Shown here piece by piece: positions 8,414 through 58,596 of a DNA stretch of 64,000 nt. The notes under the pieces are model-generated. The model ran no database searches. It saw only the letters and a list, made by a program, of their open reading frames with translations, and was not told where the DNA came from. Source of the stretch: Thermoflexia bacterium. GTDB taxonomy: Bacteria > Chloroflexota > Anaerolineae > B4-G1 > DUEL01. A program made the translations under genes and the position numbers. The first letter of the stretch is position 1, and each line of letters begins with the position of its first letter. The stretch lies in assembly GCA_011192125.1 (NCBI GenBank), contig DUEL01000005.1, forward strand, positions 1,512-65,511. The letters run 5' to 3'.

Positions 8414-8764
8414 ATGGCGAAGAAGCAAGGGCGTCGCAGACACGTCCCACACCGGACCTGCGTCGCCTGTCGGACGGTGCGCCCGAAGCGGGAGTTGATC
8501 CGCGTCGTGCGCACCCCCGAGGGGGAGGTCGCGGTAGATGAGCGCGGCAAGCAGAGCGGCCGTGGCGCCTACCTGTGCCCCCAACGGACCTGCTGGGAGC
8601 AGGCCTTGAGACGCCGCGTCCTCGACCGGGCGCTGAAGGTCTCTTTGGACGGGGAGACGATCGCCGCGTTGCGGGCCTACGCCGAGGGCCTGCCGGAGCG
8701 CATCGAATTGGACGAAGAGGACCTGGCTGCGAAGGAGGAAGTGGATGGGAGAGAAGAGGAATAA
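8414..8764 (+). CDS. ylxR: YlxR/RnpM family RNA-binding protein (DUF448)
   Basis: HVPHRTCVACR...GRGAYLCP motif; conserved position between nusA and infB. Confidence 0.8.
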   Translation: MAKKQGRRRHVPHRTCVACRTVRPKRELIRVVRTPEGEVAVDERGKQSGRGAYLCPQRTCWEQALRRRVLDRALKVSLDGETIAALRAYAEGLPERIELDEEDLAAKEEVDGREEE

Positions 8765-10544
8765 CCGCGTTGTCATCATTCCGGCGTCCCTGACCGTGCG
8801 TGAGCTGGCCCAGTTGCTGGACGTGAGCCCCATCGACGTGATCAAAGAACTGATGAACAACGGCATCATGGCTCACATCAACCAGCAGATCGATTACGAC
8901 ACGGCGGCGATCGTCGCAGCGGAGATGGGGTTCGAACCCCAGGAAGAGACCCCGCCGGAGGTTGAAGAAGCGGAGGCGGAGGGCCCCACCACCCTCTGGG
9001 AACGGCTGTACGCAGGGGAGGACCCCTCCAAACTGCGTCCCCGTCCCCCCGTCGTCACCATCCTGGGCCATGTAGACCACGGCAAGACCTCCCTGCTGGA
9101 CGCGATCCGACAGACCAACGTGGTGGCTTCCGAGGCTGGGGGGATCACCCAGCACATCGGCGCCTACCAGGTCCAGCACCAGGGGCGGACCATCACCTTC
9201 CTCGACACGCCAGGTCACGAAGCGTTCACGGCGATGCGCGCCCGTGGCGCCCAGACCACCGACATCGCCGTCCTGGTCGTCGCCGCCGACGACGGGGTGA
9301 TGCCCCAGACCATCGAGGCCATCAACCACGCCCGGGCCGCCCGCGTCCCCATCATCGTCGCCCTGAACAAGATCGACAAGCCCAACGCCCAGCCCGACCG
9401 GGTCAAGCAGCAACTGAGCGAACTGGGCCTCACCCCGGACGATTGGGGCGGGAACACGCTCTGTGTCCCCGTCTCGGCCAAGCAGCGGATCGGGCTGGAG
9501 GATCTGCTGGAAGCGATCCTCCTGGTGGCGGACGAACAGAACATCCGCGCCAACCCCGATCGACCGGCGGTCGGCACGATCCTGGAGGGTCACCTGGACC
9601 GCACCCGAGGCCCCTCTGCCACCGTGCTGGTCCAGAATGGGACGCTCCGCATCGGGGACGCCATCGTCGCTGGCACCGTGTACGGACGGGTCCGGCAGAT
9701 GCTGGACGACAACGGTAAGCCGATCAAGGAAGCCCCGCCCTCCACACCCGTGCTGGTGTTGGGCCTCTCCGACGTCCCCGTCGCGGGAGACATTTTTGAG
9801 GTCGTGAAAGACGAGCGGACCGCCCGCGCTATCGCCGAGAAGCGGAAGGAGGAACAACAGGTCAGGGCCGCAGCCCCCGCTATGCTGACCCTGGACGACC
9901 TCTCCGCCCGCATCCGCGAGGGAGAGGTCAAGGAACTGAACCTCATCCTCAAGGCGGACGTACAAGGATCTATCGAGCCGATCCTCTCCTCGCTGGAGAA
10001 ACTGGGCGGTGAGGACCTGCGGATCAACGTCATCCACGCCGCCCCCGGTAACATCACCGAGTCGGACGTCAACCTGGCGATCGCCTCCAAAGCGATCATC
10101 ATCGGCTTCCAGGTCACGGTGGATCCCGCCGCCCGGCGGTTGGCGGAGAGCGAGGGAGTGGACATCCGTCTCTACGACGTCATCTACAAACTGATCGACG
10201 AGATGGAGATGGCCCTCAAGGGCCTCCTAGAACCTGCATACGTGGAGAAGGTCATCGGCAAGGCGGAGGTCCGCGCCACGTTCGACATCCCCAAGATCGG
10301 CCGTGTGGCCGGCTGCTACATCCTCGAGGGCGTCGCTCGCCGCAACGCCCGGGCCCGGGTCTTCCGCGGGGAGGAGCAGATCTACGACGGCTACGTCGCC
10401 TCCCTCAAGCGGTTCGCCAAGGACGCGCGGGAGGTGCGCACGGGCTTCGAGTGCGGCGTGGGGCTGGAGAACTTCCACGACATCGAGGAGGGCGACATCA
10501 TCGAGTTCTACGTGATGGAACGGGAGGAACCCGCAACAGCCTGA
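8745..10544 (+). CDS. infB: Translation initiation factor IF-2 (short form, no long N-terminal region)
   Basis: GTPase motifs [25 protein letters not shown]; C-terminal beta-barrel domains. Confidence 0.9.
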
Positions 10545-18440: not shown

Positions 18441-18506
18441 CCCTGCACCCTCCCGGTGACCCTGGTGTCCGGACTCTTGTCTCAACCTCAGCGCTCCACC
18501 TTGCCC

Positions 18507-18535
18507 CCTTTCCCCGCCGATGCTACAATATCGGC
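18507..18535 (+). promoter_or_regulatory. Putative promoter TTGCCC-N17-TACAAT for the SHMT-GcvT fusion gene
   Basis: 17-bp spacing; -10 TACAAT 44 nt upstream of the ATG; RBS AAGGAG at 18566. Confidence 0.4.
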
Positions 18536-18578
18536 GTTTCACACCATCTCACAATCCACCAACCGAAGGAGTTGCACG

Positions 18579-21500
18579 ATGCCGTCCGGAGATCCTCGAT
18601 CCAAGTCGGACTTTCTTTTCCGCGCTGACCTTGAAGAGATCGCCCCGTTCGTCGCCGAACTGATCCGCTGGGAGGCGGAGCGGCAGGCCCGCAAACTGAT
18701 CCTCATCCCCTCTGAGTCGTACGCCCCAAAAGCGGTCCGTGAGGCCCTGGGCTCCGTTTTTCAGAACGTCTACGCCGAAGGGTACCCGCCGCTGCGGATG
18801 ACCCGCGATCCGGAGGTCCGATTGCGGGACGTGGCCTGGCAGTTGGCCTTCTACCGCCGTTACGCCGACCGGCGGTTCTACAAAGGGGTGGACTACGTCC
18901 ACTTCGTCGAGTGCCTGGCCCAGCGGCGGTGCGCCGAACTGTTCGCCCACGACGGCCTGCGCCCCGAGCACATCTACGTCAACGTCCAGCCCCTCTCCGG
19001 CGCGGCGGCCAACCTGGCCGTCTACCAGGCGCTGATGGAGCCGGAGGACGTCCTGATGGGGATGGACCTCTACCAGGGCGGCCACCTGACCCACGGCTCG
19101 GAGTTCAACCTCTCCGGCCAGCGATACCGGGTGGTCTCCTACGGGGTCGATCCCAAGACGGAACGGCTGGACTACGACCAGATCCGGGATCTAGCGCGGC
19201 AACACCGCCCGAAGGTGATCGTCGCCGGGTACACGTCGTACCCCTGGGCGCCGGACTGGCACGCCTTCCGGGAGATCGCCGACGAGGTGGGGGCCTACCT
19301 GATGGCGGACATCGCCCACACCGCAGGGATGGCCGCTGCCGGGGTCTACCCCAACCCCGTCGGCATCGCCGACGTGACCGTCTTCACCACCCACAAGACG
19401 ATCTGCGGGCCGCGCGGCGCGGTCATCCTCACCACCGACGAGGGACTGGCCCAGGCGATCGACATGGCGATCTTCCCCGGCGAGCAGGGCGGTCCCCACG
19501 TCAACAAGTTCGCCGCGATGGCGGTCGCCTTCCGCATCGCCCAGACGGAGGAGTTCCGCCGCCTGCAGCACCAGATCGTCGCCAACGCCCGCGCCCTGGC
19601 GGAGGGGCTCCAGAAGCGAGGGCTGAAACTGGCCTACGGCGGCACCGACACCCACCTCCTGCTCATCGACCTGAAGTCGATCCCCTCCGACACCGGCTTC
19701 CCCCTGTGGGGTGAGCCAGCGGTCCGCATCCTCGACCTGGTCGGGATCGTCGCCAACAAGAACACCATCCCCGGCGACACCGAGACCGCGCTGGCCACAG
19801 GGGTCCGGCTGGGAACCCCCTGGGTCACCCAGCGCGGGCTCGACGAGGCGGATATGGACACCCTCGCCGGGCTCATCCACAAGGTCCTGACCAACATCAA
19901 GCCCTTCGCCTACAACGGCCTCATCGGCACCCTCCCGCGCGGCAAGATCGATCTGGACGTGATGGAAGAAGTGCGGGCAGGGGTAGCGGAGTTGGCGGAG
20001 AAGGCGGGGATCGATTTTGAGTACACAAAGAGCGGATACCCGCACTTCTGGGAAGCGGGGATGCAGGGAAACGATGGAGGGACACACAGCCGTGCGCCCC
20101 GTGCCCTGCGGGTGACGGGCTGGCGGGCGCGGCAGTTCGTCCAGCAGGTGGTGACGGCGAACGTCGCCGAACTGGCCCCCGGCGAGTCGGCAGAGGCATA
20201 TATGCTCGACCGGCACGGCGGTCTCATCGCCGAGGTGACGGTGGAGCGGGAGGAGCCGGACCGGTGGGGGCGGGATCGCTACCTGATCACACCGGCCTCC
20301 AACGGCGCGCGGGTCGCCGCCTGGCTGCGGGCCCTCTCCGACGGGTACACACTGTTCGACGAGGAGGACGTGTTCCGGAAGGTGGAGGGGCCGGTGGTGG
20401 TGGAGGAGATACCTCACCCCTCCCCCGCCGCCTCCGGCGGCACCCCCTCCCCTCTCCCATCTGGGAGAGAGGAGGGGGCCGGGGAGTGGGGTGAGGTCCT
20501 GGCCACCCACCCGGAGCGGTTCGACCTGACCAAGCCGTACTTCGTGGGCCAGGCGCATCTGAGAGCGTTCGCGCCGAAGGTCGAGCGGGAGGAGTGGCAC
20601 TGGGAGGAGCCGGAGGCCCCCCTGAAGCGGACGCCGCTGTACGAGGTCCACAAGCGGATGGGCGCCAAGATGGTCCCCTTCGCCGGGTGGGAAATGCCGG
20701 TCTGGTACACCTCGGTGAGCGAGGAGCACCGGGCGGTGCGGGAGGCCGCCGGCCTGTTCGACGTAGCCCATATGGGGGTGTTCGAGATCACCGGTCCGCA
20801 CGCCACTGCCTTCCTGGACACGGTCTGTTCCAACTACGTCGCCTGGCTGGAGGACGGCCAGTCCCTCTATGGCTACCTGCTCGACCCCGACGGGCGGGTG
20901 ATCGACGACGTGATGATCTACCGGCTCCGGGCCGACCACTACCTGATGGTGGTCAACGCGGCCAACGAGGAGAAGGACTGGGACTGGCTGAACGCGGTCA
21001 ACGAGCGGCGGGTGGTCATCGACCGGGACCGGCCCTGGGTGCAGGTGGAGGCCCAGGCGGTGCTGCGCAACCTGAAGGACCCGGCCTCCGGCGAGCGGCA
21101 GAAGCGGGACCTGGCGTTGCAGGGACCTGCGTCATTGCCCACCCTCCAGGCGCTGACCAACGACCCGGACGTGAAGGCCGCACTGCGCAGACTGCGCCGG
21201 ACCGAGTTGATGGAGTGCGAACTGGCGGGGATCCCGCTGGTGGTGGCCCGCACCGGCTACACCGGCGAGGAGTGGGGGTTTGAGATCTTTGTCCACCCCG
21301 ACGACGCCCCTCGGCTGTGGGAGGCCATCCTGGAGGCGGGAGAGGCCTTCGGCGTGAAGCCGTGCGGCCTGGGCGCGCGGGACAGCCTCCGCACCGAGGC
21401 CGGACTTCCCCTCTACGGCCACGAACTGGCCGGCCCGTTCGACATCTCCCCCATTGAGGCCGGCTTCCCCGGCTACGTCAAGTACCACAAGCCGTTCTTC

Positions 21501-21872
21501 GTCGGCCGCGACCCGCTCCTGGCCCGGGAGAAGGACCGCAGGCGGGAGGTCATCCGCTTCCGGGTCAACGAGAAGGGCGTCCGCATCCCCCACCTGGGCG
21601 ACCCCGTGGTCAACCGGAAGGGGCAGCAGATCGGCCACGTGACCAGTTGCTCCATCGACGTCGAGGGGTATCTGGTAGGGATGGCGATCGTCGAGAAGCG
21701 GTACAACGTGCCGGAGACCCCCATCGCCGTCTTCCCCCTGGGCGGCAAGTCGCTGGACGAGGCGCTGCTGCGCGGCAAGCGGGTCGCCCTGCCGGTGGCG
21801 GCGACGGTGTTGACGCGGTTCCCAGAAAGGGAAGAGGGGAGACCGAGGATGAGAATGGGTGGGGAGGATTAG
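18579..21872 (+). CDS. Fusion protein. N-terminal serine hydroxymethyltransferase-like PLP domain, a middle GcvT-like partial domain, and a C-terminal complete aminomethyltransferase (glycine cleavage T protein).
   Basis: SHMT motifs LIPSESY...YAEGYP and the PLP-Lys motif [13 protein letters not shown]. GcvT motifs [26 protein letters not shown]...LFDVAHMG. Single continuous 1098-codon frame from the ATG at 18579. Confidence 0.8.
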
Positions 21873-21874
21873 TG

Positions 21875-22597
21875 ATGAGACGAGAGACCTTCGACATCCT
21901 GTTTCTTGTGGCCCGTCCGGCGGCGGGGAAGAGCGAGATCATCGATTATCTCACACGGACGGACGTGGAGGAGCGGCGGCGCCGGTTCCACATCGGCCCC
22001 TTCGAGGTACTGGACGACTTCCCGATGCTCTGGACCTGGTTTGAGGAGGACGCGATCCTGCGCAGGATGGGCTACCCCGGCCTCCACACCGACGAGGAGG
22101 GATACTTCAAGTATCCGTACCTCTGGCACCTCCTCATCGAGCGGCTGGCGCTGGAGTTCCAGAAGCGAGAGCGGGATCGACCGCCCGACCAGGAGGTCAC
22201 CACCATCGTGGAGTTCTCCCGAGGCAGCCCGTCGGGCGGCTACCGGGAGGCCTTCCGCCACTTCCCGGAGGAGATGCTGGCACGGGGTGCGATCCTGTAC
22301 GTGCGGGTCTCCTACGAGGAGTCGCTGCGGAAGAACCGGCTCCGGTTCAACCCGGACCGGCCCGACTCCATCCTGGAGCACAGCCTGCCGGACGAGAAGA
22401 TGGAGCGACTGTACAAGGAGGACGACTGGGATGATTTCACGTCGGCGGACCCGGAGTATGTGGAGGTGAAGGGGGTGCGAGTGCCCTATGCGGTGTTTGA
22501 GAACGAAGATGACGTGACGACGGAGCGAGGGGAACCGCTGGGGCAGCGGTTGGAGGTCGTTCTGGACCAGCTCTGGGCGATCTGGTCCCGCAGGTGA
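21875..22597 (+). CDS. P-loop kinase-fold hypothetical protein (Walker-A-like ARPAAGKSE)
   Basis: LFLVARPAAGKSEIIDYL near the N-terminus; ATG overlaps the upstream stop (TGATG). Confidence 0.55.
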   Translation: MRRETFDILFLVARPAAGKSEIIDYLTRTDVEERRRRFHIGPFEVLDDFPMLWTWFEEDAILRRMGYPGLHTDEEGYFKYPYLWHLLIERLALEFQKRERDRPPDQEVTTIVEFSRGSPSGGYREAFRHFPEEMLARGAILYVRVSYEESLRKNRLRFNPDRPDSILEHSLPDEKMERLYKEDDWDDFTSADPEYVEVKGVRVPYAVFENEDDVTTERGEPLGQRLEVVLDQLWAIWSRR

Positions 22598-22601
22598 GCG
22601 C

Positions 22602-22670
22602 TGTTTCACCGCAGAGATGCAAAGGGCGCAGAGGTTTCCACGGTTTTTCGCAAAGGTAAAGAGACGATGC
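22602..22670. repeat. Family-A repeat (degenerate right arm)
   Basis: tttcaccgcagagatgcaaagggcgcagagg. Confidence 0.5.
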
Positions 22671-23665
22671 GGAAAGGCGTATCTACTCGACCACCCGTCT
22701 TCGTCACTCGCCCCATCCCCGAGGCCGGCCTCCGCCGGGTGCGGGACGCCTGCGAGGTCCGGATGTGGGAAGGGGAACTACCTCCACCCAAGGAGGTGAT
22801 CCTCAAAGAAGTGGCCGAATGTGAGGGCTTGCTTTGCCTGCTGACCGACCCCATCGACGCGGAGGTGGTCGGCGCCGGAAGACACCTTCGGGTGATCAGC
22901 CAGATGGCTGTGGGGGTCGACAACATCGACCTGGAGGCCGCCACGGCGCGGGGGATCCCCGTCGGCCACACACCAGGGGTCCTCACCGAGGCCACCGCCG
23001 ACCTGACCTTCGCCCTGCTCCTCGCCGCCGCACGGCGCATCCCGGAGGGGATCGAGTACGTCCGCCAGGGACGGTGGCGCACCTGGGAGCCGATGGTCCT
23101 CCTCGGGAGGGAGGTCTGGGGGAAAACGCTGGGCATCGTCGGACTGGGGCGCATCGGGACGGCGGTGGCCCGCCGCGCGCGGGGGTTCGCGATGCGGGTC
23201 CTCTACCACAGCCGAAGCCGCAAGCCGGATCTGGAGGCGGAACTGGGCGTGGAGTACACGCCGCTGGACGACCTGCTGGCTCAGGCCGACTTCGTCAGCC
23301 TCCACTGCCCGCTGACCCCCGAGACCCACCACCTCATCGACGAGGAGGCGCTGCGCCGGATGAAGCCGACGGCGATCCTGATCAACGCCGCCCGCGGGCC
23401 GGTGGTGGATACCGACGCGCTGCTGCGGGCGCTGCGGGAAGGCTGGATCGAGGCGGCCGGTCTCGACGTCACCGACCCCGAGCCGCTGCCGGCGGACCAC
23501 CCCCTGCTCGACCTCCCCAACTGCATCGTCATCCCCCACCTGGGCAGCGCGACGGTCGCTGCAAGGGAACGGATGGCGACGATGGCGGCGGAGAACCTGC
23601 TGGCAGGGCTGCGTGGGGAGCGGCTGCCGTACTGCGCGAATCCCGAGGTCTACGAGGCCAGATGA
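22667..23665 (+). CDS. D-isomer-specific 2-hydroxyacid dehydrogenase (glyoxylate/hydroxypyruvate reductase-like)
   Basis: NAD-binding GxGxxG ([13 protein letters not shown]), catalytic [20 protein letters not shown]. Confidence 0.8.
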
Positions 23666-23681
23666 CTGGGGTGACTGGAAA

Positions 23682-24095
23682 ATGGGACGAGTGATCTCCA
23701 CGGAAGGACCAGGGAAGATACGGAATCAGCATCGGCGGACGATCGCCGAGGTGTTGCGGATTTTGAGCCAGAAGCGGGAACTGGACGAGGAGGTGAAGGA
23801 CCTGGCCGCCGTCATCGTCTTCTCGCTCCACGGCATCGCCGACACGGTGGAGCAGACGACGGCGGCATGGGATAAGAGGAACTATTACCTCAAGGCCGAC
23901 CGGTTCCGACGGGAGTGGGCCTGGGTCGAGGAGGCGATCGAGGAACTGAGCGACCTCATCTACCGGGGACGTTGGGAGCATCTCCCCGCCTTCCTGGCCC
24001 GGTTGGCCCCCCGCTTCGCCGACGTGAAGGTATCCCGCCTGACCCGCAACCCATCCCTTTGGAAAGGGGCCTACCAGCGCTTCATGCAGGAATGA
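23682..24095 (+). CDS. Hypothetical protein (137 aa)
   Basis: ORF with no recognisable motif; followed by a strong palindrome. Confidence 0.4.
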   Translation: MGRVISTEGPGKIRNQHRRTIAEVLRILSQKRELDEEVKDLAAVIVFSLHGIADTVEQTTAAWDKRNYYLKADRFRREWAWVEEAIEELSDLIYRGRWEHLPAFLARLAPRFADVKVSRLTRNPSLWKGAYQRFMQE

Positions 24096-24101
24096 GCCCT
24101 C

Positions 24102-24167
24102 CACGAATAGAGCACGAATGCACGAATGGCGGCCTCACCCATTCGTGCATTCGTGCTCTATTCGTGG
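24102..24167. terminator. Perfect 28-bp inverted repeat (family C, CACGAAT/ATTCGTG triple repeats) between convergent genes
   Basis: CACGAATAGAGCACGAATGCACGAATGG-cggcctcac-CCATTCGTGCATTCGTGCTCTATTCGTG. Confidence 0.6.
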
Positions 24168-24203
24168 ACGGCGGCGGGTGCGACCTTGTCTCCCCGCGAC
24201 CCG

Positions 24204-25529
24204 CTAGAGCCGTTCCTCCGGCCCGACGGGCAGCGCCACCAGGCCGCTGATCACCTTGGGATAGAAGTCGGTGGACTTCTGCGGCATCCGCTCGCTGGCG
24301 GCGGTGCAAGCCCGCACCTGCTCGATGCGGGTGGGGTTCATCAGCAGCAGGAACTGGGCCTCCCCCTTGTCCACCGCCGCAAAACCGGGCGTGGGATCGC
24401 GCAGGTAGTCGATGTTCTCCTTCCGCTTGACCGCCTCTTTGTCGATCCCCAGCACCCGCTCGATGAACAGTTCGTGCAGGACCACCACGTCCAGCATCCG
24501 CCAGTCGGCAGCGCGGTCGGGCAGGAGTTGGGCCATCACGCCTGGATCGCGCAACTCCAGCACCGCGTAGGCCCCGTCGTAGAAGCCGAAGCGCGGGTGG
24601 TCGGGCCTAGCCTCCGCCAGCGCCTTCTCCACCGCCGCCCGGTCCGAAGCGGGCGTCACCTCGAAGTACTCCTTCGCCTTCTCCAACGCCGCCTTCCCAT
24701 CCATCCGGGTGTAGGAGTGGATGAGCCGGTGGGTGGGGAGGATCACAAGACCCGGATCGCTCATACTGACCAGCGTGACCATCGTGTAGTTGAAGGCGGC
24801 GTCGGCGGGGGCGTCCGGGTATTTCTGGCGCATCTCGTCCCGGAAGGTGAGCGCGGTCTCGTACCGGTGGTGCCCGTCGGCGATGATCAGGTTCCGCTTG
24901 GGGGCCATCTCCTCTGCCACAGCCCGGATCACCTCCGGATCGTCCACCACCCAGAACCGCTGTTCCACCGCGCTCTCGATCACCTGCTCCCGCGCGACGA
25001 TCGGCTCGTGCGTCTCCAGATAGGACTGGAGAATGGAGTTGACACGGTTCTCGTCGTCGGGGTAGAGGATGAAGATGTGCCCCCAGGCCGTCTCGGTGGC
25101 GCGGAACAGGTTCAGCCGATCCACCTTGGGACCGGAGAGGGTCCGCTCGTGGGGGAGGATCACCCCCTCGTCGAAACGGGTCAGTTGGAGCGCGGCGCTG
25201 AACCCCCGGCGGGTGCGGGTCTCGCCGGTCGGCGTGGTGTAGGTCTGCTCCAGGACGTAGATCGCCGGCCGCTCCTCCCGCATCAACACTCCCTCCGCCA
25301 ACCAGGTACGGGCGTAGCAGCGAGCGCGGGTATAGACATTGTCCGTCTCGCTATCCCACGGCGTCGCCTTGCCCCGGATGATGCGGACGAAGTTGTAGGG
25401 GCTCAGTTCGTAGTACCGCTCCTGCTGCGGCTCGTGGATGCGGTCGTAGGGCTGGGTGATCACCTTCGAGAGGTCGCCGACCTTCTCGACGTTGTAGCGC
25501 AATCCGCGAAACGGTTTCACAATCGCCAT
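24204..25529 (-). CDS. DUF1015 family protein
   Basis: N-terminal MAIVKPFRGLRYN typical of DUF1015. True start is MAIVKPF; the ORF extension MSSVSLWW comes from the repeat element. Confidence 0.7.
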   Translation of the reverse strand: MAIVKPFRGLRYNVEKVGDLSKVITQPYDRIHEPQQERYYELSPYNFVRIIRGKATPWDSETDNVYTRARCYARTWLAEGVLMREERPAIYVLEQTYTTPTGETRTRRGFSAALQLTRFDEGVILPHERTLSGPKVDRLNLFRATETAWGHIFILYPDDENRVNSILQSYLETHEPIVAREQVIESAVEQRFWVVDDPEVIRAVAEEMAPKRNLIIADGHHRYETALTFRDEMRQKYPDAPADAAFNYTMVTLVSMSDPGLVILPTHRLIHSYTRMDGKAALEKAKEYFEVTPASDRAAVEKALAEARPDHPRFGFYDGAYAVLELRDPGVMAQLLPDRAADWRMLDVVVLHELFIERVLGIDKEAVKRKENIDYLRDPTPGFAAVDKGEAQFLLLMNPTRIEQVRACTAASERMPQKSTDFYPKVISGLVALPVGPEERL

Positions 25530-25549
25530 CGTCTACCTCCATTACGTAG

Positions 25550-25632
25550 TTCCACCACAGAGACACAGAGGACACAGAGTTTTTCTCTTGTTTTTTGCGT
25601 TTCTCAGCGCACTCTGTGCCTCTGTGGTTTTT
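25550..25632. repeat. Family-A palindromic intergenic repeat (full copy)
   Basis: ccaccacagagacacagaggacacagag ... ctctgtgcctctgtggtt. Confidence 0.7.
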
Positions 25633-25639
25633 TGTTCCA

Positions 25640-26323
25640 CTAAAACTCCGCCTTGTAGAACGACACCACGGTCACCACGTAGGCGATCATCTTCGGCAGC
25701 ATCAGCATCCCCGCGATGGGGTACCGGTCGACGAAGAGGATGGTGCCGAGGTAGCAGGTGAAGGAGACGATCACCGACCACCCGGCGACGGTCAGCCATT
25801 TACTTCCGGCGCGCAGGAACATCCCGGCGAGGACGAACCCGGCAAAAGCAAAGGGGATATTCCGGTAGATACGCCACGCGGGGGCCGGGCCACCCCAGTT
25901 GTTCTGGGGGAAGAAGAGAAGCACCACACGCACCGCCAGCGCTGCCACCACCAGCCACTCTACCCAGGTCCACGGATGGCCCGTCTTCTCCTGGCGGTAC
26001 AGGAGGGCGAAAAGATAGAAGAAAGTAAGCGTGAAGGAGGTGGCGAAGGAGCCGACGCCGAGCCAGGAGACCAGGTAGCCGCCCCAGTGGAGGGCGATCG
26101 CCTCCACACTGGAGAGGGTCCGGTGGGCGTAAGCGACGATGTGGACCGTGTCGCCGAGGATCAGCGTGACCACCGCCGCCAGCAGCCAGCGACTGCTCCT
26201 CTGCTGCTCCGGCGACTGCTGCCCGTACCGCCTGATCATCAACGCGGCGACGGTCAGGATGCTCGCCAGGTAGGCGAAGTTGAGCAGATTGACGACGATC
26301 CCCATAGGTCCGGTGGTAGGCAT
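25640..26323 (-). CDS. Integral membrane protein (about 6 TM helices), hypothetical
   Basis: Hydropathy pattern; lies in the riboswitch-controlled operon. Confidence 0.5.
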   Translation of the reverse strand: MPTTGPMGIVVNLLNFAYLASILTVAALMIRRYGQQSPEQQRSSRWLLAAVVTLILGDTVHIVAYAHRTLSSVEAIALHWGGYLVSWLGVGSFATSFTLTFFYLFALLYRQEKTGHPWTWVEWLVVAALAVRVVLLFFPQNNWGGPAPAWRIYRNIPFAFAGFVLAGMFLRAGSKWLTVAGWSVIVSFTCYLGTILFVDRYPIAGMLMLPKMIAYVVTVVSFYKAEF

Positions 26324-26391
26324 AGTCTACTCCTTATCTCATAGCTCCGGCTGGTGCGACGCACCTTGAAGTACGTCGCACCAGCCCTACC

Positions 26392-27306
26392 CTACCCCAT
26401 CCTCTGCGCGAACTCGATGGCGATGCGGGCCACCTCCTCGCCCACGCGGGCCTTCGCTTCTTTGGTCCCCGCACCGATGTGGGGCGAGCCGATGACCTGT
26501 GGCAACTCCATCAGCCGCTTGCCCCGGTCCTCCTTCTCGTCCTCGAACACGTCCAGCGCTGCCCCCGCCACCTTGCCGCTGACGATAGCGTCGTACAGCG
26601 CCCCCTCGTCCAGCGTTCCGCCCCGGCCACAATTGATGATATAGACCCCGTCCTTCATCTTGGCGAACTCCTCCGCGCCGATGAGGTAGTGGGTCTCCGG
26701 GGTGTGGGGGACGTGGAGGGAGATGAAGTCGGAGCGGGCCAGGAGTTCGTCCAGGGAGACCTGGGTAGCGCCGGGGACCTCGACCCGGGTGCGGCGGTAG
26801 TAGATGACCTCCATCCCCAGCGCGGCCGCCTTCTGGGCCACCAGGCTCCCGATCCGACCGCAGCCCACCAGCCCCAGTGTCTTCCCGGCCAGTTCGATCC
26901 CCTTACTGAAGGCCTTCTTCTCCCACTTTCCTGCCTTCATCGACGCGGTGGCCTGGGGGATCTGCCGGGCCAGGGCGAAGAGGTAGCCGATGGTCAACTC
27001 GGCCACCGAGTTCGAGGAGGCGGCCGGGGTGTTGCGCACCTCGATCCCTTTCGACTGGGCGTACTCCACGTCGATGTTATCCAGCCCCACCCCACCGCGG
27101 ATGATCAACTTCAGGTTGGTCGCTTTGTCGATGAGGGGAGCACGGACCTTGGTGCGGCTGCGGACGACGATGGCGTCGTAGTCATCGATGACCGCCTCCA
27201 GTTCCTCCGGCGAGATGTCGTCCCGCACGTCCACCTCGATCCCCGCCTCGCGCATCGCAGCGATGGCTTTTTCATCGGTTGGGTCGCAGATCAGGAGCCT
27301 CATCAT
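26392..27306 (-). CDS. Short-form D-3-phosphoglycerate dehydrogenase-like 2-hydroxyacid dehydrogenase (no ACT domain)
   Basis: GGVGLDNIDVEYAQSKGI...GLVGCGRIGSLVA; catalytic His region HIGAGT. Confidence 0.8.
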   Translation of the reverse strand: MMRLLICDPTDEKAIAAMREAGIEVDVRDDISPEELEAVIDDYDAIVVRSRTKVRAPLIDKATNLKLIIRGGVGLDNIDVEYAQSKGIEVRNTPAASSNSVAELTIGYLFALARQIPQATASMKAGKWEKKAFSKGIELAGKTLGLVGCGRIGSLVAQKAAALGMEVIYYRRTRVEVPGATQVSLDELLARSDFISLHVPHTPETHYLIGAEEFAKMKDGVYIINCGRGGTLDEGALYDAIVSGKVAGAALDVFEDEKEDRGKRLMELPQVIGSPHIGAGTKEAKARVGEEVARIAIEFAQRMG

Positions 27307-27319
27307 TACCTCCTTAGAC

Positions 27320-28387
27320 TTACAATCCCAGAATATCGTTGATCTGCTCCAACAGCCACTTGATGTCCTCCACCGTCAGGTCGCCCATGTGTGCGATACG
27401 GAAGCACTTTTCCTTCAGATCACCGTAGCCGTTGGAGATGATGGCACCCCGCTTGCGCAGTTCCTCGTTCAGCCCGGCGACGCTGATGCCGCGGGTGTTC
27501 TTGACATTGGTAACGGTGAGGGAGAGGTACCGCTCGTCGGAGTAGAGGGCGAAGTACTCGCGGGCCCAGTCCTGCACGATGGCCGCCATATCCTTGTGCC
27601 GCTGCCACCGGTTCTCCAGCCCCTCGGCCAGGATGTCGTCCATCTGCTTGTTGAGGGCCCAGATCAGGCTGATCGCAGGGGTCGCCGGGGTCTGGTGCTT
27701 CTCGTACTTCTTATCCATCTGCTCGTAGGAGAAATAGTAGCCCGGATTGGCGACCTGCCTGGCCCGTTCCCGCGCCCGGTCGCTCACCGCGCAGACCGTC
27801 AGCCCAGGCGGGAGGGCGAAGCACTTCTGCACACCAGCCAGGCAGACATCCAGCCCCCAGGCGTCGAACTCGATCTTCACCCCGGCCATACAACTGACCG
27901 CGTCCACCAGGATGAGCACGTCGGGGTACTTGTCGTGGATGAGGGCGGCGATGTCCTTGACCGGGTTCATCACGCCGGTGGAGGTCTCGTTCATCACGAT
28001 GGTCACCGCGTCGTACTCGCCGCTGGCCAGCGCCTCATCCACCATCTCCGGCGTGATCGCCTGCCCCATCGGCACCTCGATCTTGTCGCAGGGGATGCCG
28101 TTCGCCTTGGTGATCTGGTGCCACCGCTTGGAGAAGGCACCGCAGACGGTGTTGAGAACCTTCTTGGTGGAGGCCTGCCGGACCGAACCCTCCATCACGC
28201 CGGTTGACGAAGAGGTGTAGAGGTAGACCCGCTGCGTGGTGTAGAGAAGTTTCTGGAGTTTGGGGGTCACCTCAGCCTGCAGCGCCGAGTACTCCGGCGT
28301 CCGATGGCCGATCATCGGGACCGTCTGAGCCTGCAGAACCTCCTCCCGAACGTGCGTCGGACCGGGGATAAACAGTTTCGGATACAT
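27320..28387 (-). CDS. Class-V aminotransferase (serine-glyoxylate / alanine-glyoxylate / phosphoserine aminotransferase family)
   Basis: MYPKLFIPGPT N-terminus; PLP-Lys motif GVQKCFALPPGL. First gene downstream of the glycine riboswitch. Confidence 0.8.
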   Translation of the reverse strand: MYPKLFIPGPTHVREEVLQAQTVPMIGHRTPEYSALQAEVTPKLQKLLYTTQRVYLYTSSSTGVMEGSVRQASTKKVLNTVCGAFSKRWHQITKANGIPCDKIEVPMGQAITPEMVDEALASGEYDAVTIVMNETSTGVMNPVKDIAALIHDKYPDVLILVDAVSCMAGVKIEFDAWGLDVCLAGVQKCFALPPGLTVCAVSDRARERARQVANPGYYFSYEQMDKKYEKHQTPATPAISLIWALNKQMDDILAEGLENRWQRHKDMAAIVQDWAREYFALYSDERYLSLTVTNVKNTRGISVAGLNEELRKRGAIISNGYGDLKEKCFRIAHMGDLTVEDIKWLLEQINDILGL

Positions 28388-28435
28388 CGCTCACCTCCTC
28401 ACAGATGGGTTGATCGCCTCGTAACACTCCATCCC

Positions 28436-28660
28436 AAGAAAAAAGGGGAACGCACGACCGGCATGCATTCCCCCTGTCCACGACCTGAGAGATTCCCCAC
28501 CCTCCGCCGGAGGGCGGGTTGCCCCGTCGGTGCCCGGCGGGCTCTCCAGGGGTGGCTACGACACGGGGTCCTTTTACCTGAGAGTTTCACCGACGACGTC
28601 CGGTCCCCACCGTCGGCTTGCCCCTTCGGTGCCTCCGACGAGGTCTCTCCCCCGTGTCCG
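28436..28660 (-). promoter_or_regulatory. Tandem glycine riboswitch (two aptamers) with an intrinsic-terminator expression platform
   Basis: Minus-strand aptamer 1: GGGGGAGAGACC...GGCACCGAAGGGGCAAGCC...GUGAAACUCUCAGGUAAAAGGAC. Aptamer 2: CUGGAGAGCC...GCACCGACGGGGCAACC...GAAUCUCUCAGGUCGUGGACAGGGG. Then terminator GGGGAATGCA-N9-TGCGTTCCCC + TTTTTTCTT, then RBS GAGGAGG and the ATG. Confidence 0.88.
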
Positions 28661-28699
28661 CCACGGACGATCAATTTACTCTTTGGATCGACAGAGCCC

Positions 28700-28727
28700 A
28701 TTGTAGCAAATCCTTCCGAGATGTCAA
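28700..28727 (-). promoter_or_regulatory. Promoter TTGACA-N16-TACAAT driving the glycine riboswitch
   Basis: Exact -35, near-consensus -10, about 35 nt upstream of the aptamer 1 P1 stem. Confidence 0.5.
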
Positions 28728-28774
28728 AGCCCGGAGTTGCCCCTCCACGATAAGCATACTAAAATCACACCGAA

Positions 28775-29587
28775 ATGGCAAACAGGTATCCACTTGCGAC
28801 CTGGCGACTCGTCCTCTCCCCCCCGGCCGACGGGGCCACCCATATGGCGGTGGACGAGGCGATCTGGGAGGCCGTCGCTGTCGGTCGGGCTCCCCCCACC
28901 CTACGCCTCTACTCCTGGTCGCCCCCCTGTCTCTCGCTGGGGCGCAACCAGCCCGTGACGACGGTCAATCGGCAGGCCCTGCGGGAACGGGGATACGACC
29001 TGGTCCGCCGTCCCACCGGCGGGCAGGCCGTCCTCCACATCGACGAACTGACCTACAGCGTGATCCTCCCCCTCTCCGACCCCCGTGCCCAGGGAGGCAT
29101 CCTGGAAAGTTGTGAGCGCCTCAGCGCCGGGCTGGTCCGCGCTCTGGAAATCCTCGGCGTGGCGGGAGCCGTCGCCCGCCGCCGTCCCCACCCCCCTCAG
29201 GCCCGCGGCCCGGTCTGCTTCGAGACTACCGCCGACTTCGAGGTCGCCGTCGGCGGAAGGAAACTGATCGGCAGCGCGCAGCGCCGAGGGCGCGGGACCC
29301 TCCTCCAGCATGGCGCGCTCCCCCTCTGGGGGGACATCACCCGCATCTGCCCCCTCCTCGTCCCCCCGGCGGACCCCCAGCGAGTGGCCGCACGCGCCAC
29401 GACGCTGGAGGCGGTCCTTAGTCACCGTATCTCTTGGGAGAGGGCTGCGGAGGCGATGATAGAAGGATTCGCCCAGGCACTGAACCTCCGCCTGGAACCC
29501 GACGGACTGACGCCGGAGGAGCGCCAGCGTGTCGAGCAACTCCGGCAGGAGAAGTACGCCAGCGAAGGGTGGACCAGCCTGGTCTAG
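28775..29587 (+). CDS. Lipoate-protein ligase / octanoyltransferase (BPL_LplA_LipB family)
   Basis: LYSWSPPCLSLGRNQ, RRPTGGQAVLH, the conserved Lys region, and GRKLIGSAQRR. A possible leaderless start: TAAAAT -10 ends 9 nt before the ATG. Confidence 0.75.
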   Translation: MANRYPLATWRLVLSPPADGATHMAVDEAIWEAVAVGRAPPTLRLYSWSPPCLSLGRNQPVTTVNRQALRERGYDLVRRPTGGQAVLHIDELTYSVILPLSDPRAQGGILESCERLSAGLVRALEILGVAGAVARRRPHPPQARGPVCFETTADFEVAVGGRKLIGSAQRRGRGTLLQHGALPLWGDITRICPLLVPPADPQRVAARATTLEAVLSHRISWERAAEAMIEGFAQALNLRLEPDGLTPEERQRVEQLRQEKYASEGWTSLV

Positions 29588-36852: not shown

Positions 36853-38640
36853 CTACAAAGACCGATGCTCCCGAACCGCCTCCAGCGCCAGGTCGATGAA
36901 CGCCTCCACCGACATCGCCCCTGGCACCTCACCATCCCGGCGGCGCAGGTTGACCTGTCCGGCCTCCATCTCCCGGTCGCCGATGACCAGCATATACGGC
37001 ACCTTCTCCATCTGCGCGTCCCGGATCTTGGCCTGCATCCGGTCGCTGGAGTCGTTCACCTCCACACGGAGGCCGACCTCCCTGAGCCGCCTCGCCACAT
37101 CGTAGGCGTAGTCCACGTGCCGGTCGGCGATGGGGATGAGGACCGCCTGGACGGGGGCCAGCCAGACGGGGAAGGCCCCGCCGTAGTGCTCCACCAGGAT
37201 GCCGAAGAACCGCTCCAGACTGCCCAGCAGCGCCCGGTGGACCATGTAGGGCCGGTGCTCCTTCCCGTCCTCCCCCACGTAGGTCATATCGAACCGCTCC
37301 GGCAGGTTGAAGTCGAACTGGATCGTCGTGCACTGCCAGAGCCGGCCGAGGGCGTCCTTGATCTTGATGTCGATCTTGGGACCGTAGAACGCCCCGCCTC
37401 CCTCGTCCACCTCGTAAGGCAGTCCCTCCGCCTCGATCGCCTTGCGCAGGCTCTCCTGCGCCTGCTCCCACCGCTCCGGCTCCCCCACGTGCTTCTCCGG
37501 CATCGTCGCCAGATAGACCTCGAACTCCTCGAAGCCGAAGGCGCGGAGCAGATCCAGCGAGAACCGCAGCACCTCCAGGACCTCGTCCTCGATCTGCTCC
37601 GGCGTGCAGAAGATATGGGCGTCGTCCTGGGTGAAGCCCCGGACCCGGAGCAGGCCGTGCAGGACCCCGCTCCGCTCGTACCGGTACACCGTCCCCAGTT
37701 CCGCCCAGCGCATCGGCAGTTCCCGATAAGAACGACGACGGCTCTTGTACATCAGGATGTGGAACGGGCAGTTCATCGGCTTGATGAAGTACTCCACCCC
37801 TTCGACGTCCATCGGCGCGTACATACTCTCCCGGTAGAAGTCCAGGTGACCGGACCGCTCCCAGAGTTGTGCCCGGCCGATGTGGGGGGTGAAGACGATC
37901 TCGTAGCCGCCCTTCCGGTGCTGCTCCCGCCAGAAGTCCTCGATCACCTGGCGGATGCGGCCACCCTTGGGATGCCAGTAGGCCAGCCCGGGACCGCCCT
38001 CCTCGTGGAAACTGATCAGGTCCAACTCCTTGATCAACCGCCGGTGGTCCCGCTTCTCCACCTCCTCCCGCCAGGCCAAGTACTGCCTCAGTTGCTTAGG
38101 CGTCTCCCAAGCGGTGCCGTAGATCCGCTGCAGCATCGGCCGCCGCTCGTCCCCCCGCCAGTACGCCCCGGCGACGCTGAGCAACTTGATCGCCTTGGGG
38201 TTGATCTCTTTGGTGTTGGCAACGTGGGGGCCGCGACATAGGTCAACGAACGGACCGTGCCGATAGATAGAGAGGACCGGCTTCCCCTCCACCGGCCGCC
38301 CGTGCTCGTCCATCCCGCCGGAGAGGATCTCGTCGATCAACTCCAGTTTGTAGGGCTGGTCGGCGAAGAGGCGACGGGCCTCCTCCTCGTCGATCTCCTC
38401 GTAGACGAAATCGTACCCCTCGGCGATGATCTCCCGCATCCGGGCCTCGATCTCCTCCAGGTCCTCCGGAGTCAACGGCCGGGGGAGGTCGAAATCGTAG
38501 TAGAAGCCGTTCTCAATGGCCGGACCGATGGCCAGTTTGGCACCAGGGAACTTCTCCAGCACCGCCTGGGCCATCACGTGGGCCGCCGAGTGACGGATGC
38601 GCTCCAGCCGACCGTTCTCCTGTTCCTTCTTCTTCGACAT
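36853..38640 (-). CDS. thrS: Threonyl-tRNA synthetase
   Basis: TGS/editing and class II core motifs (HRALLGS..., GPKIDIK); start at the ATG 38640 preceded by a GGAGG RBS. Confidence 0.92.
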   Translation of the reverse strand: MSKKKEQENGRLERIRHSAAHVMAQAVLEKFPGAKLAIGPAIENGFYYDFDLPRPLTPEDLEEIEARMREIIAEGYDFVYEEIDEEEARRLFADQPYKLELIDEILSGGMDEHGRPVEGKPVLSIYRHGPFVDLCRGPHVANTKEINPKAIKLLSVAGAYWRGDERRPMLQRIYGTAWETPKQLRQYLAWREEVEKRDHRRLIKELDLISFHEEGGPGLAYWHPKGGRIRQVIEDFWREQHRKGGYEIVFTPHIGRAQLWERSGHLDFYRESMYAPMDVEGVEYFIKPMNCPFHILMYKSRRRSYRELPMRWAELGTVYRYERSGVLHGLLRVRGFTQDDAHIFCTPEQIEDEVLEVLRFSLDLLRAFGFEEFEVYLATMPEKHVGEPERWEQAQESLRKAIEAEGLPYEVDEGGGAFYGPKIDIKIKDALGRLWQCTTIQFDFNLPERFDMTYVGEDGKEHRPYMVHRALLGSLERFFGILVEHYGGAFPVWLAPVQAVLIPIADRHVDYAYDVARRLREVGLRVEVNDSSDRMQAKIRDAQMEKVPYMLVIGDREMEAGQVNLRRRDGEVPGAMSVEAFIDLALEAVREHRSL

Positions 38641-38935
38641 TTCCCCTCCTTGCAACACAGAGTCTCTTAAAGAAAACCCCCGCGCCCCTTGGGGCGCGGG
38701 GGTCTCCCACGCGGTTCCACCCAAGTTCGGCGGTGAAGCGACTCACCGCCGCACTCTGAGGCTGTAACGGGCCTTCCCGGAGCCCCATACTCTCGCCGAA
38801 GCGATTTCAAGGGCCCACTCCCGGGGGGTTTTCCCGACCGTCCGGTCAAGGGGGCTTCCAGCCACGACCCCCTCTCTCTGGGACCTTCTCAGGCCGGTAC
38901 TCGTCCCGGTCAACGCTTTCACACTCTCGATTGTG
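38641..38935 (-). promoter_or_regulatory. T-box leader (Thr-specific) upstream of thrS
   Basis: T-box sequence AACUUGGGUGGAACCGCGUGGGAGACC with a UGGA bulge (discriminator U of tRNA-Thr). Overlapping terminator CCCGCGCCCC-AAGG-GGCGCGGGGG + UUUUCUUU. Stem I region contains ACC (Thr codon). Confidence 0.75.
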
Positions 38936-41131: not shown

Positions 41132-41144
41132 ATCGCTCACTTTA

Positions 41145-41228
41145 TCCCACCACAGAGACACGGAGGGCACAGAGACTCTCCAAACCCTGAGAAAAATCTC
41201 TGTGCTCTCTGTGCCTCTGTGGTTTTCC
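41145..41228. repeat. Family-A palindromic repeat
   Basis: caccacagagacacggagggcacagag ... ctctgtgctctctgtgcctctgtggtt. Confidence 0.7.
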
Positions 41229-42539
<1,311 letters not shown>

Positions 42540-42544
42540 CTAGG

Positions 42545-42608
42545 TTTCACCACAGAGACACGGAGAGCACAGAGGTTCCCTTTCTTGTCCTCTGTGTCTC
42601 TGTGGTCC
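42545..42608. repeat. Family-A palindromic repeat
   Basis: caccacagagacacggagagcacagagg ... cctctgtgtctctgtggt. Confidence 0.7.
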
Positions 42609-42610
42609 TT

Positions 42611-43708: not shown

Positions 43709-43739
43709 GTGCTAGCAACCAGCAGCCAGCAACTAGCAA

Positions 43740-57893: not shown

Positions 57894-57939
57894 CCCCTAG
57901 ATATGGGGGTTTTTGGCTCTAAAGCCCCCATATCTGGCG
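57894..57939 (+). promoter_or_regulatory. Two NrdR-box-like imperfect palindromes immediately downstream of the -10
   Basis: CCCCTAGATATGGGGG and GCCCCCATATCTGGCG, 14-bp gap. Each resembles the NrdR box acaCwAtATaTwGtgt. Confidence 0.55.
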
Positions 57940-57969
57940 ATCTCCCACCCAAGGACAAGGAGTAGCGGG

Positions 57970-58422: not shown

Positions 58423-58426
58423 CCGA

Positions 58427-58486
58427 ACGGCCAATGGCCCAACGGCCATCCTACGGTTGGTCATTGGGCCATTGTCGGTCATCACA
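58427..58486. other. Imperfect long inverted repeat between nrdR and nrdD
   Basis: CGGCCAATGGCCCAACGGCCAT ... ATTGGGCCATTGTCGGTCAT. Confidence 0.35.
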
Positions 58487-58596
58487 CCGGGATCAAACGC
58501 GCCAACACCGTCGCAGGGATGTGGAGAACGCGAGGGAACCATCTCAACGCTACGTTCTCCGTGTCCCTGTGGTGAAAGACCTCAGCGAGGCACAAA

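Follow-up and report, generated by a model that had tools for sequence, protein, structure and literature searches.

A tandem glycine riboswitch precedes a minus-strand operon of aminotransferase, dehydrogenase, membrane-protein and DUF1015 genes in the DNA analysed here, a 64,000-nucleotide stretch of contig DUEL01000005.1 from a Thermoflexia bacterium (the window). On balance we think it probable that this operon is induced by glycine and routes surplus glycine through serine and phosphoserine to 3-phosphoglycerate, and not through glycerate. The initial annotation of positions 18507 to 29587 had proposed a gene neighbourhood that takes glycine via serine, hydroxypyruvate and glycerate to phosphoglycerate, in analogy to the lower branch of the photorespiratory C2 cycle. 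The broad idea of a path from glycine through serine to phosphoglycerate remains plausible, given the ON-type switch and the co-localisation of the operon with a gene for a fusion of serine hydroxymethyltransferase and the glycine cleavage T protein (SHMT-GcvT fusion), but the glycerate chemistry did not stand up. The genes that had been listed are all real, but the DUF1015 gene (D), the membrane-protein gene (E) and a gene that we call X, which lie inside the same interval, had been missed.

The features of the interval, which is identical to an 8.9-kb metagenome contig of the Joint Genome Institute (JGI; L001), are given below. Genome and metagenome loci fetched for comparison carry numbers prefixed with L, and PGDH denotes 3-phosphoglycerate dehydrogenase.

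18579-21872, plus strand: gene A, SHMT-GcvT fusion of 1097 aa (PF00464, PF01571)
21875-22597, plus strand: gene B, P-loop kinase-fold protein of 240 aa (AlphaFold2 (AF2)/Foldseek; P-loop ARPAAGKSE)
22667-23665, plus strand: gene C, GRHPR/GyaR-type glyoxylate/hydroxypyruvate reductase-like dehydrogenase of 332 aa (NF009714/PRK13243)
23682-24095, plus strand: gene X, predicted helical protein of 137 aa, also annotated as a gene in the identical contig from JGI
24204-25529, minus strand: gene D, DUF1015/'SerBK' protein of 441 aa, proposed free serine kinase (PF06245)
25640-26323, minus strand: gene E, multi-pass membrane protein of 227 aa, slot kept in L166 and L168
26392-27306, minus strand: gene F, short PGDH-type dehydrogenase of 304 aa, serA role (TIGR01327, PDB matches)
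27320-28387, minus strand: gene G, class-V (AGXT-family) aminotransferase of 355 aa, proposed to fill the serC role as a phosphoserine aminotransferase (PF00266)
28433-28475, minus strand: expression platform, 14-bp intrinsic terminator hairpin and UUUUUUCUU (terminator scan)
28464-28555, minus strand: glycine riboswitch aptamer 2 (Rfam RF00504, 42.2 bits)
28556-28662, minus strand: glycine riboswitch aptamer 1 (Rfam RF00504, 66.9 bits)
28700-28727, minus strand: sigma-70-type promoter, TTGACA, 16 nt, TGcTACAAT (extended -10) (promoter scan)
28775-29587, plus strand: gene H, LplA-type lipoate/octanoate protein ligase, catalytic domain only (PF21948)

The plus-strand set A, B, C and X is convergent with the minus-strand operon, which is read in the order promoter, tandem aptamers, terminator, G, F, E and D. 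Gene X is therefore the convergent neighbour of D, and H is divergent from the operon promoter. F starts 13 nt past the end of G, and B starts 2 nt past the end of A. The SerA-like gene that had been placed under a glycine riboswitch (F) and the riboswitch itself are both real, but the riboswitch directly precedes G, and F is the second gene. The window has a G+C content of 62-70%, and the closest relatives of the locus are found in Anaerolineae/Anaerolineales and in Thermoflexus-like metagenome-assembled genomes.

The glycine riboswitch and its expression platform

Both aptamers matched the Rfam model over its full length, with scores well above the gathering score of 32. The promoter scan found 11 of 12 positions matching in the promoter of the operon, along with the TG of the extended -10 element. 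A similar promoter, TTGACATTTG...TAGTGTAAAAT, was present 5' of the riboswitch in L016, L088, L090 and L168, and directly 5' of the operon in L166, which has no riboswitch.

The P1 stem of aptamer 2 is formed by CCCCUG paired with CAGGGG. The 5' arm of the terminator, AGGGGGAAUGCAUG, holds five of the six bases of the 3' strand of this stem, and P1 and the base of the terminator are thus mutually exclusive. The terminator hairpin has a folding energy of -22.6 kcal/mol, and the minimum free energy fold computed without a ligand constraint contained the terminator and not P1. We compared this leader with those upstream of G orthologues in L005, L013, L014, L016, L021, L088, L089, L093 and L168, all confirmed by Rfam, and in L090, which was not. 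In every one of these leaders the hairpin begins inside the 3' strand of P1, and a U-run follows the hairpin in most of them, being absent in L021 and weak in L168. The terminator stem sequences vary by locus (for example GGGGGAAUGCAUG, GGGAAUGCGC, GAGGACGCACAGCC, GAGGACACACA and GAGGCUCACAGUA), and RNAalifold detected compensatory changes in five of the eight consensus pairs. Read from the sequence, this layout suggests a classical glycine-ON switch. In the absence of glycine, the 3' strand of the aptamer-2 P1 would join the base of the terminator and transcription would stop before G; in its presence P1 would be stabilised, the terminator blocked and the operon transcribed.

The aminotransferase leader of L090 (L090:13700-13900, minus strand) resembles a single hybrid aptamer in which the 5' half of aptamer 1 is joined to the 3' half of aptamer 2; its terminator is intact. 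This apparent singlet gave no Rfam match at E values up to 0.01 and was not counted as confirmed.

Glycine riboswitches were also found upstream of the SHMT-GcvT fusion in relatives. In L097 (L097:1714-1896) and L101 (L101:670-863), an Rfam-confirmed riboswitch with a hairpin-plus-U platform lies directly 5' of the fusion gene, and a confirmed riboswitch is present 5' of the fusion in L104 (L104:2592-2703), but with a weak hairpin and U-run. Since the fusion that is controlled at these loci consumes glycine, only induction by glycine makes sense there. No riboswitch was detected upstream of the window's own fusion gene A in a search at E values up to 1. The true start of A is at 18579, and a promoter-like site is present at 18501-18529; position 18507, where the annotated interval begins, falls in this promoter region. 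As a separate observation, one aptamer in L100 and in L104 carries a long repetitive insertion of GGTCAGGTGGTCA-like units.

The gcvT-type tandem glycine riboswitch of Bacillus subtilis was reportedly described by Mandal and colleagues in 2004 as an ON switch. Like it, the leader described here has two aptamers and then a terminator whose formation competes with that of the P1 stem in aptamer 2, and in both cases glycine would be expected to induce glycine-consuming genes. Unlike the B. subtilis riboswitch, which controls gcvT-gcvP, the one described here controls serC/serA/DUF1015-type genes.

Enzymes of the operon and conservation of the neighbourhood

Sequence comparison places F closest to the true 3-phosphoglycerate dehydrogenases. 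F aligned to positions 1-299 of the 525 in the TIGR01327 PGDH model with a score of 356.8 bits, which is below the cutoff of 454 because the ACT/ASB regulatory domains are absent. The top 19 PDB matches of F were all PGDHs (257 to 186 bits), among them human PHGDH (257 bits), Pyrococcus horikoshii 1wwk (240 bits) and the PGDH of Mycobacterium tuberculosis (227 bits). The first match outside this group was 2cuk, a glycerate dehydrogenase/glyoxylate reductase, at 184 bits, and no glyoxylate reductase scored higher than this.

G is indeed a class-V aminotransferase, as had been annotated, and it passed no NCBIfam equivalog cutoff (BhcA, 209 of 650 bits). The canonical SerC models were not reached either, with scores of 73.5 against a cutoff of 401.65 for serC_3, 25.7 against 443.6 for serC_1 and 28.8 against 253 for PRK05355. 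The best PDB match of G was 2dr1, an uncharacterised 'serine aminotransferase' of P. horikoshii (232 bits), and the serine-glyoxylate aminotransferase 6pk1 gave 130 bits. As no equivalog cutoff is passed, the substrate of G can be deduced from context only, and it is the synteny of the gene that points to a serC role. The motif MIGHRTPEY of G ('GHR') was considered as a phosphate-binding signature like the SHR of E. coli SerC, and was rejected as not discriminating because plant serine:glyoxylate aminotransferase (SGAT) also carries (H/Y)R at this position.

D matched PF06245 with 299.5 bits (gathering score 25.8), its residues 4-348 aligning to profile positions 1-324 of 325. It is ~40% identical to homologues from Clostridia. 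The motifs DGHHR and MPQKST were invariant in 34 diverse DUF1015 homologues. When a profile of these 34 sequences was compared with the PDB, it touched 1vk1 only, at a non-significant E value of 1.1, and did so at two colinear motifs, IADGHHRY/IVDGHHRW and a C-terminal ...MPQKST/...FSPKTT. A fragment of 1vk1, which is a member of the SerK family, matched the 'free serine kinase' structures of Thermococcus kodakarensis at ~1e-26. The DUF1015 family has been named SerBK, and it has been proposed to phosphorylate serine and to act in the phosphorylated pathway run in reverse (preprint 10.1101/2024.10.14.618325, 2026). This study reported a structural match of DUF1015 to the serine kinase SbnI, from which the claim of a ParB/Srx-like fold comes, and found that the DUF1015 member of Bacteroides thetaiotaomicron is required for the use of L-serine as a nitrogen source, that the Clostridium botulinum gene complements an E. 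coli serB mutant, and that genomes with a serA-linked DUF1015 gene mostly lack serB; it also asks whether the cellular role of DUF1015 is that of a phosphoserine phosphatase or of a serine kinase (10.1101/2024.10.14.618325). No SerB of the haloacid dehalogenase (HAD) type was seen among the scanned open reading frames (ORFs) of the 64-kb window.

The SHMT-GcvT fusion had also been correctly recognised. A contains the PF00464 SHMT domain (409 bits) and the PF01571 GCV_T domain (313 bits) in a single ORF, and its pyridoxal phosphate-lysine motif, TTHKT, is invariant in four orthologues. The protein presumably converts two glycines to serine, with the one-carbon unit channelled between the two domains. 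Of the full-length fusions found, 4 were in genome loci and 79 in metagenome loci. The latter (L087-L165) encode proteins of ~1100 aa with 49-80% identity and a ~220-aa interdomain linker; Pfam gives two GCV_T stretches in A.

To describe the conservation of the neighbourhood, we scanned 80 species-level genome loci from the DUF1015 side, of which 60 were informative, and the 79 metagenome loci from the fusion side. F was directly upstream of D in 33 of the 60 informative genome loci, and the complete G-F-D trio was present in 27. The trio occurs in Chloroflexota, Thermotogae, Bipolaricaulota and TA06, and the F-D pair additionally in WOR-3. A glycine riboswitch before G was confirmed by Rfam in just five genome loci (L005, L013, L014, L016 and L021); none was present in six other Anaerolineae operons scanned with Rfam, and neither riboswitches nor T-boxes were found in 12 Clostridia DUF1015 loci. 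Seventeen G-F-D loci for which there was no Rfam scan were scored as riboswitch-negative by a strict regular expression for the aptamer core, which a divergent aptamer could escape. In the Rfam-scanned loci this expression missed no Rfam match, and the matches unique to it were in L090, L100 and L145 (at a contig edge). The fusion, C or X was present in the flank of all five riboswitch-bearing genome loci, compared to none of the 23 G-F-D loci without a riboswitch.

On the fusion side, L088, L089, L090 and L093 contain the neighbourhood in full, and L091 contains part of it. The gene order there is A, C (absent in L089) and X, with convergent D, F and G read from the riboswitch. D, F or G was found near the fusion in five of six informative close orthologues (at least 72% identity), and within 10 kb of none of the ~60 more distant fusions. 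Rfam confirmed a riboswitch in L088, L089, L093 and L168 as well, giving ten instances of the riboswitch operon including that of the window; the nine others all belong to one Anaerolineae clade. The operon and the fusion are convergent in the window, in L088-L093 and in L005, and divergent in L014. A second fusion paralogue, which is 52-62% identical, is divergent from the aminotransferase gene in L088, L089, L090 and L014. This variation in gene order between loci argues for selection on proximity. Taken from these sequence comparisons, the G-F-D core operon appears to be ancient and widespread, and glycine control together with linkage to the fusion, C and X appears to be a clade-specific module that was kept through rearrangements. 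Conservation of the annotated neighbourhood thus holds for the G-F-D core and, within a narrow Anaerolineae clade, for the full set, but not for B and H, which are linked to it on the window's own contig alone.

C, E and X seem to belong to this clade-specific module. C is, to judge from its scores, the hydroxypyruvate/glyoxylate reductase-type dehydrogenase that had been annotated: it scored 430 bits against the NF009714/PRK13243 glyoxylate reductase model (cutoff 455) and 296 bits against GhrB (cutoff 492). It was located near the fusion and/or DUF1015 in L003, L005, L013, L016, L088, L090-L093 and L147. E had no Pfam or NCBIfam match, and a search of 5.8 billion proteins returned 20 homologues, all of those with a named source being from Chloroflexota. 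Homologues of E (61% identity) lie between the PGDH and DUF1015 genes in L166 and L168, so that E occupies the same slot in every context examined; E-like genes were sought in the F-D gaps of other loci and none was found. Its rarity and its constant slot make E look like a dedicated member of the operon. X had no Pfam or PDB relative among its 315 representative clusters, was confined among the fetched loci to the neighbourhood of this clade (13 loci), and has six invariant residues (R14, D40, W63, K71, W79 and W81). In L166, the aminotransferase and PGDH genes are separated by an inserted gene for a PemK-type toxin together with a small ORF upstream of it (L166:4100-6075).

B, in contrast, is probably a passenger gene outside the pathway, because its neighbourhood is not kept in relatives and its homologues are found in unrelated contexts. 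None of the other fetched loci contained it, not even L003, whose fusion and DUF1015 proteins are 89% and 86% identical to those of the window. Three homologues of B, one of them 86% identical, lie in unrelated contexts, two directly after a Mg-chelatase/VWA gene. B had no sequence match in Pfam, NCBIfam or the PDB. Its AF2 model, with a predicted local distance difference test (pLDDT) score of 87, has a fold resembling nucleoside/nucleoside monophosphate (NMP) kinases, and the top Foldseek matches in the PDB were deoxycytidine/deoxyguanosine kinase, PSTK and adenylate kinase, at TM scores of ~0.5. A family search gave 6790 homologues, of which all 120 listed were without a Pfam domain and those with names were 'hypothetical'. 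The B family is highly conserved in Anaerolineae, and the genes at L083:10001-10741 and L086:8001-8720 overlap by 4 nt with the end of a ~690-aa Mg-chelatase/VWA gene, which hints at another functional partner for the family. H, the lipoate-protein ligase whose presence was borne out (PF21948, 120 bits), is adjacent to the operon on L001 only; in relatives this slot is occupied by the second SHMT-GcvT paralogue or by other genes, and H is probably an incidental neighbour.

Proposed route from glycine to 3-phosphoglycerate and its alternatives

We propose that G, F and D correspond to serC, serA and serBK of the phosphorylated serine pathway, run in the catabolic/assimilatory direction. Two glycines would be converted to serine by the SHMT-GcvT fusion along with glycine cleavage H, P and L proteins, which would have to be encoded outside the window. 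D, as a free serine kinase, would then use a nucleotide phosphate donor to convert serine to O-phosphoserine, G would transfer the amino group of phosphoserine to a 2-oxo acid with formation of 3-phosphohydroxypyruvate, and F would reduce this with NAD(P)H to 3-phosphoglycerate. The PGDH equilibrium favours 3-phosphoglycerate, and with a kinase the irreversible phosphatase step is avoided, which makes the reverse direction reasonable in thermodynamic terms. As a riboswitch reports the physiological signal to which an operon responds, induction by glycine of serC-serA-DUF1015 genes that lie next to an enzyme forming serine from glycine would constitute independent regulatory evidence for a kinase function of DUF1015 and for the catabolic direction. 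The sequence data show the gene families, the riboswitch, the overlap of terminator and P1, the layout of the operon and its conservation in relatives; which way the flux runs, what G and F use as substrates and whether D is a kinase are inferred.

Several points weigh against this proposal. Were this the sole serA/serC set of the organism, an operon that is off by default would be hard to reconcile with serine prototrophy. The only direct experiment on a DUF1015 protein is complementation of a phosphoserine phosphatase mutant, which is the biosynthetic direction (10.1101/2024.10.14.618325). An AF2 model of D, built from a shallow alignment of 12 sequences, had a pLDDT of 52 and gave meaningless Foldseek matches (best E value 0.23), and because of its poor quality we make no claim on the fold from it. 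G falls below every equivalog threshold and its substrate is not readable from its sequence, while F is under the full-length PGDH cutoff and has no regulatory domains. The ON logic is deduced from the leaders as sequences; among these, the U-run is missing in L021 and weak in L168, and Rfam does not recognise the singlet of L090. No GcvH, GcvP or L protein was seen among the scanned ORFs of the 64-kb window, and these may be encoded elsewhere in the genome. Most G-F-D operons have no riboswitch, and there was none in the 12 Clostridia loci. Finally, since all evidence at the level of the module is from one clade, the co-occurrence counts are not phylogenetically independent.

Ordinary serine biosynthesis is the alternative that deserves the most attention, although we consider it unlikely. 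The operon would then convert 3-phosphoglycerate to serine with DUF1015 replacing SerB, and the riboswitch would either be an OFF switch providing end-product feedback or induce the operon for a non-catabolic reason. The complementation of E. coli serB and the general lack of serB in genomes with serA-linked DUF1015 genes (10.1101/2024.10.14.618325) are in keeping with this, as is the wide occurrence of the G-F-D trio without a riboswitch, and feedback by glycine on serine synthesis would be metabolically sensible. However, a terminator that shares bases with the 3' strand of P1 is the layout of an ON and not an OFF switch, the same platform controls the glycine-consuming fusion in relatives, and the operons that bear the riboswitch are those beside the fusion. 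To induce de novo serine synthesis when glycine is plentiful would make no regulatory sense. We regard as quite improbable the non-phosphorylated branch of the C2/serine cycle, as initially annotated, in which G as a serine:glyoxylate or serine:pyruvate aminotransferase would form hydroxypyruvate from serine, C or F would reduce it to D-glycerate, and B as a glycerate kinase would yield phosphoglycerate. G does belong to the AGXT/SGAT class-V family, C is close to the glyoxylate/hydroxypyruvate reductases and is kept near the fusion in the clade, and a P-loop family of glycerate kinases exists in plants and cyanobacteria. The P-loop kinase fold assigned to B agrees with its model, but the model most resembles nucleoside/NMP kinases, no sequence match to kinase families was found, and the position of B next to the fusion is not kept in any other locus, L003 included. 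None of the glycerate kinase families of Pfam (class I, class II MOFRL and class III PRK-like) was found in the scanned ORFs of the window. F is closest to the PGDHs, and DUF1015, which is in the same operon and is the partner most conserved alongside G and F, would have no role in this route. The SerA/SerC-type relationships and the nucleotide kinase-like B are largely what had been named in advance as evidence against the glycerate route.

There are two further explanations. Detoxification of glycine, in which G would transaminate glycine to glyoxylate, F and/or C would reduce this to glycolate, and DUF1015 and E would be accessory or unrelated, seems to us very improbable. Class-V aminotransferases commonly use glyoxylate and glycine, C resembles glyoxylate reductases, and in other bacteria the glyoxylate enzymes under glycine riboswitch control include malate synthase (PMC2211319). 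Against this, F is PGDH-like and not glyoxylate reductase-like, C lies outside the riboswitch operon, and both the conserved G-F-D trio and its linkage to SHMT-GcvT would be left unexplained. In addition, transamination between glyoxylate and glycine strongly favours glycine. It is hardly credible that there is nothing functional here beyond a known serC-serA-DUF1015 operon, with the fusion, C, X, B and H nearby by chance or through lineage history. It is true that B and H are not kept next to the operon in relatives, and shared ancestry could explain a full neighbourhood that is confined to one clade; yet proximity has survived the rearrangements between convergent and divergent arrangements, the fusion, C or X is present where the riboswitch is (5/5 compared to 0/23 loci), and across relatives both the fusion and the operon are found under the control of glycine riboswitches. 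No single alternative accounts at once for the ON platform, the PGDH-type enzyme, the partnership with DUF1015 and the linkage to the fusion.

Other genes of the window, related systems and significance

Elsewhere in the window, a minus-strand run at 39707-45851, 11-17 kb from the riboswitch operon, encodes pyruvate kinase, enolase, a DRTGG/AAA_26 protein and an ADP-forming acyl-CoA synthetase-like protein, and thus represents lower glycolysis/acetate formation. A class-II aminoacyl-tRNA synthetase gene (36853-38724, minus strand), whose tRNA_SAD, tRNA-synt_2b and HGTP_anticodon domains point to a threonyl-tRNA synthetase, is preceded by a T-box leader (38687-38922, minus strand; 105.6 bits, gathering score 93). 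NrdR followed by NrdD, an anaerobic ribonucleotide reductase of 1145 aa with an ATP-cone, is encoded at 57913-62034 on the plus strand, consistent with an anaerobic lifestyle. Two ORFs of 1054 and 803 aa (2986-6150, plus strand, and 6458-8869, minus strand) have a coding-like G+C content at third codon positions and gave no Pfam match at E values up to 1e-5. No serine dehydratase gene was seen among the scanned ORFs of the window.

Among known systems, the closest in gene content is the serC-serA-serBK operon of Clostridioides difficile, Clostridium botulinum and B. thetaiotaomicron, which has the same three families in the same order and on the same strand (10.1101/2024.10.14.618325); Hofmann et al. 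2018 is cited in that preprint in this connection. The use of serine through phosphoserine is also raised there (10.1101/2024.10.14.618325). Unlike the C. difficile-type operon, the operon of the window has a predicted glycine-ON riboswitch, an extra membrane-protein gene, a class-V SerC, a short SerA and an SHMT-GcvT neighbour. With respect to chemistry, the closest counterpart is the route proposed for T. kodakarensis, which leads from glycine through serine, SerK, the aminotransferase TK1548 and the SerA TK1966 to 3-phosphoglycerate and serves 2-phosphoglycolate salvage/serine assimilation; in Desulfurococcales, serK clusters with PGDH and aminotransferase genes (PMC5120207; PMC11032457). 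The proposed chemistry is the same, phosphorylation preceding transamination and reduction. However, the protein here is a 441-aa DUF1015 and not a 242-aa SerK, with likeness at the level of motifs only (E = 1.1), and the genes form a bacterial, riboswitch-controlled operon, whereas the archaeal genes are mostly dispersed.

COG4198 is presumably the DUF1015 family. Glycine riboswitches upstream of serC (COG1932) and COG4198 genes have been noted in metagenomes (Kazanov et al. 2007, PMC2211319), and riboswitch-regulated serC and serA genes in one Clostridium species (Sun et al. 2013, PMC3766115). These reports resemble the present case in having a glycine riboswitch before serC/serA-type genes, and differ from it in that they concern Proteobacteria or Firmicutes, include some single aptamers, and carry neither a functional interpretation nor a link to a serine kinase or to SHMT-GcvT. 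As no riboswitch was found in the 12 Clostridia DUF1015 loci, the COG4198 report of 2007 was not reproduced in that sample. The lower branch of the photorespiratory C2/serine cycle shares with the proposed route the net conversion of glycine-derived serine to phosphoglycerate, SHMT-coupled glycine cleavage, a class-V aminotransferase and a GRHPR-like dehydrogenase. It differs from the system described here, where the scanned ORFs include no glycerate kinase, the regulated dehydrogenase is of the PGDH type and a DUF1015 gene is part of the operon.

The new elements in our analysis are the ON-type evidence for the riboswitch of this operon, the recurring link between riboswitch and operon within one clade of Chloroflexota, the association of the operon with SHMT-GcvT fusions that are themselves under glycine riboswitch control in relatives, and the extra components E and X. 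A wider interpretation, which we offer tentatively and hold to be possible but rather doubtful, is that the module represents a phosphorylated variant of C2/serine assimilation that is induced through the glycine riboswitch, in which a DUF1015 kinase replaces glycerate kinase, the fusion feeds the pathway, and E and X are dedicated components. Such a module might form the carbon-assimilation arm of a glycine-centred, perhaps reductive-glycine-type, metabolism in anaerobic Anaerolineae, and G might use glyoxylate as the amino acceptor, mirroring SGAT. The locus provides compact material for testing the proposal, with a leader suited to transcription assays and three enzymes suited to coupled assays, and ties two uncharacterised families, E and X, to the same module. 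If the proposed route from glycine through phosphoserine is correct, it would be a third bacterial route of serine into central carbon metabolism, besides serine dehydratase and the hydroxypyruvate/glycerate route, and one that yields 3-phosphoglycerate directly. It would then bear on glycine/serine fermentation, on designs of the reductive glycine pathway, and on the annotation of thousands of 'serine biosynthesis' operons.

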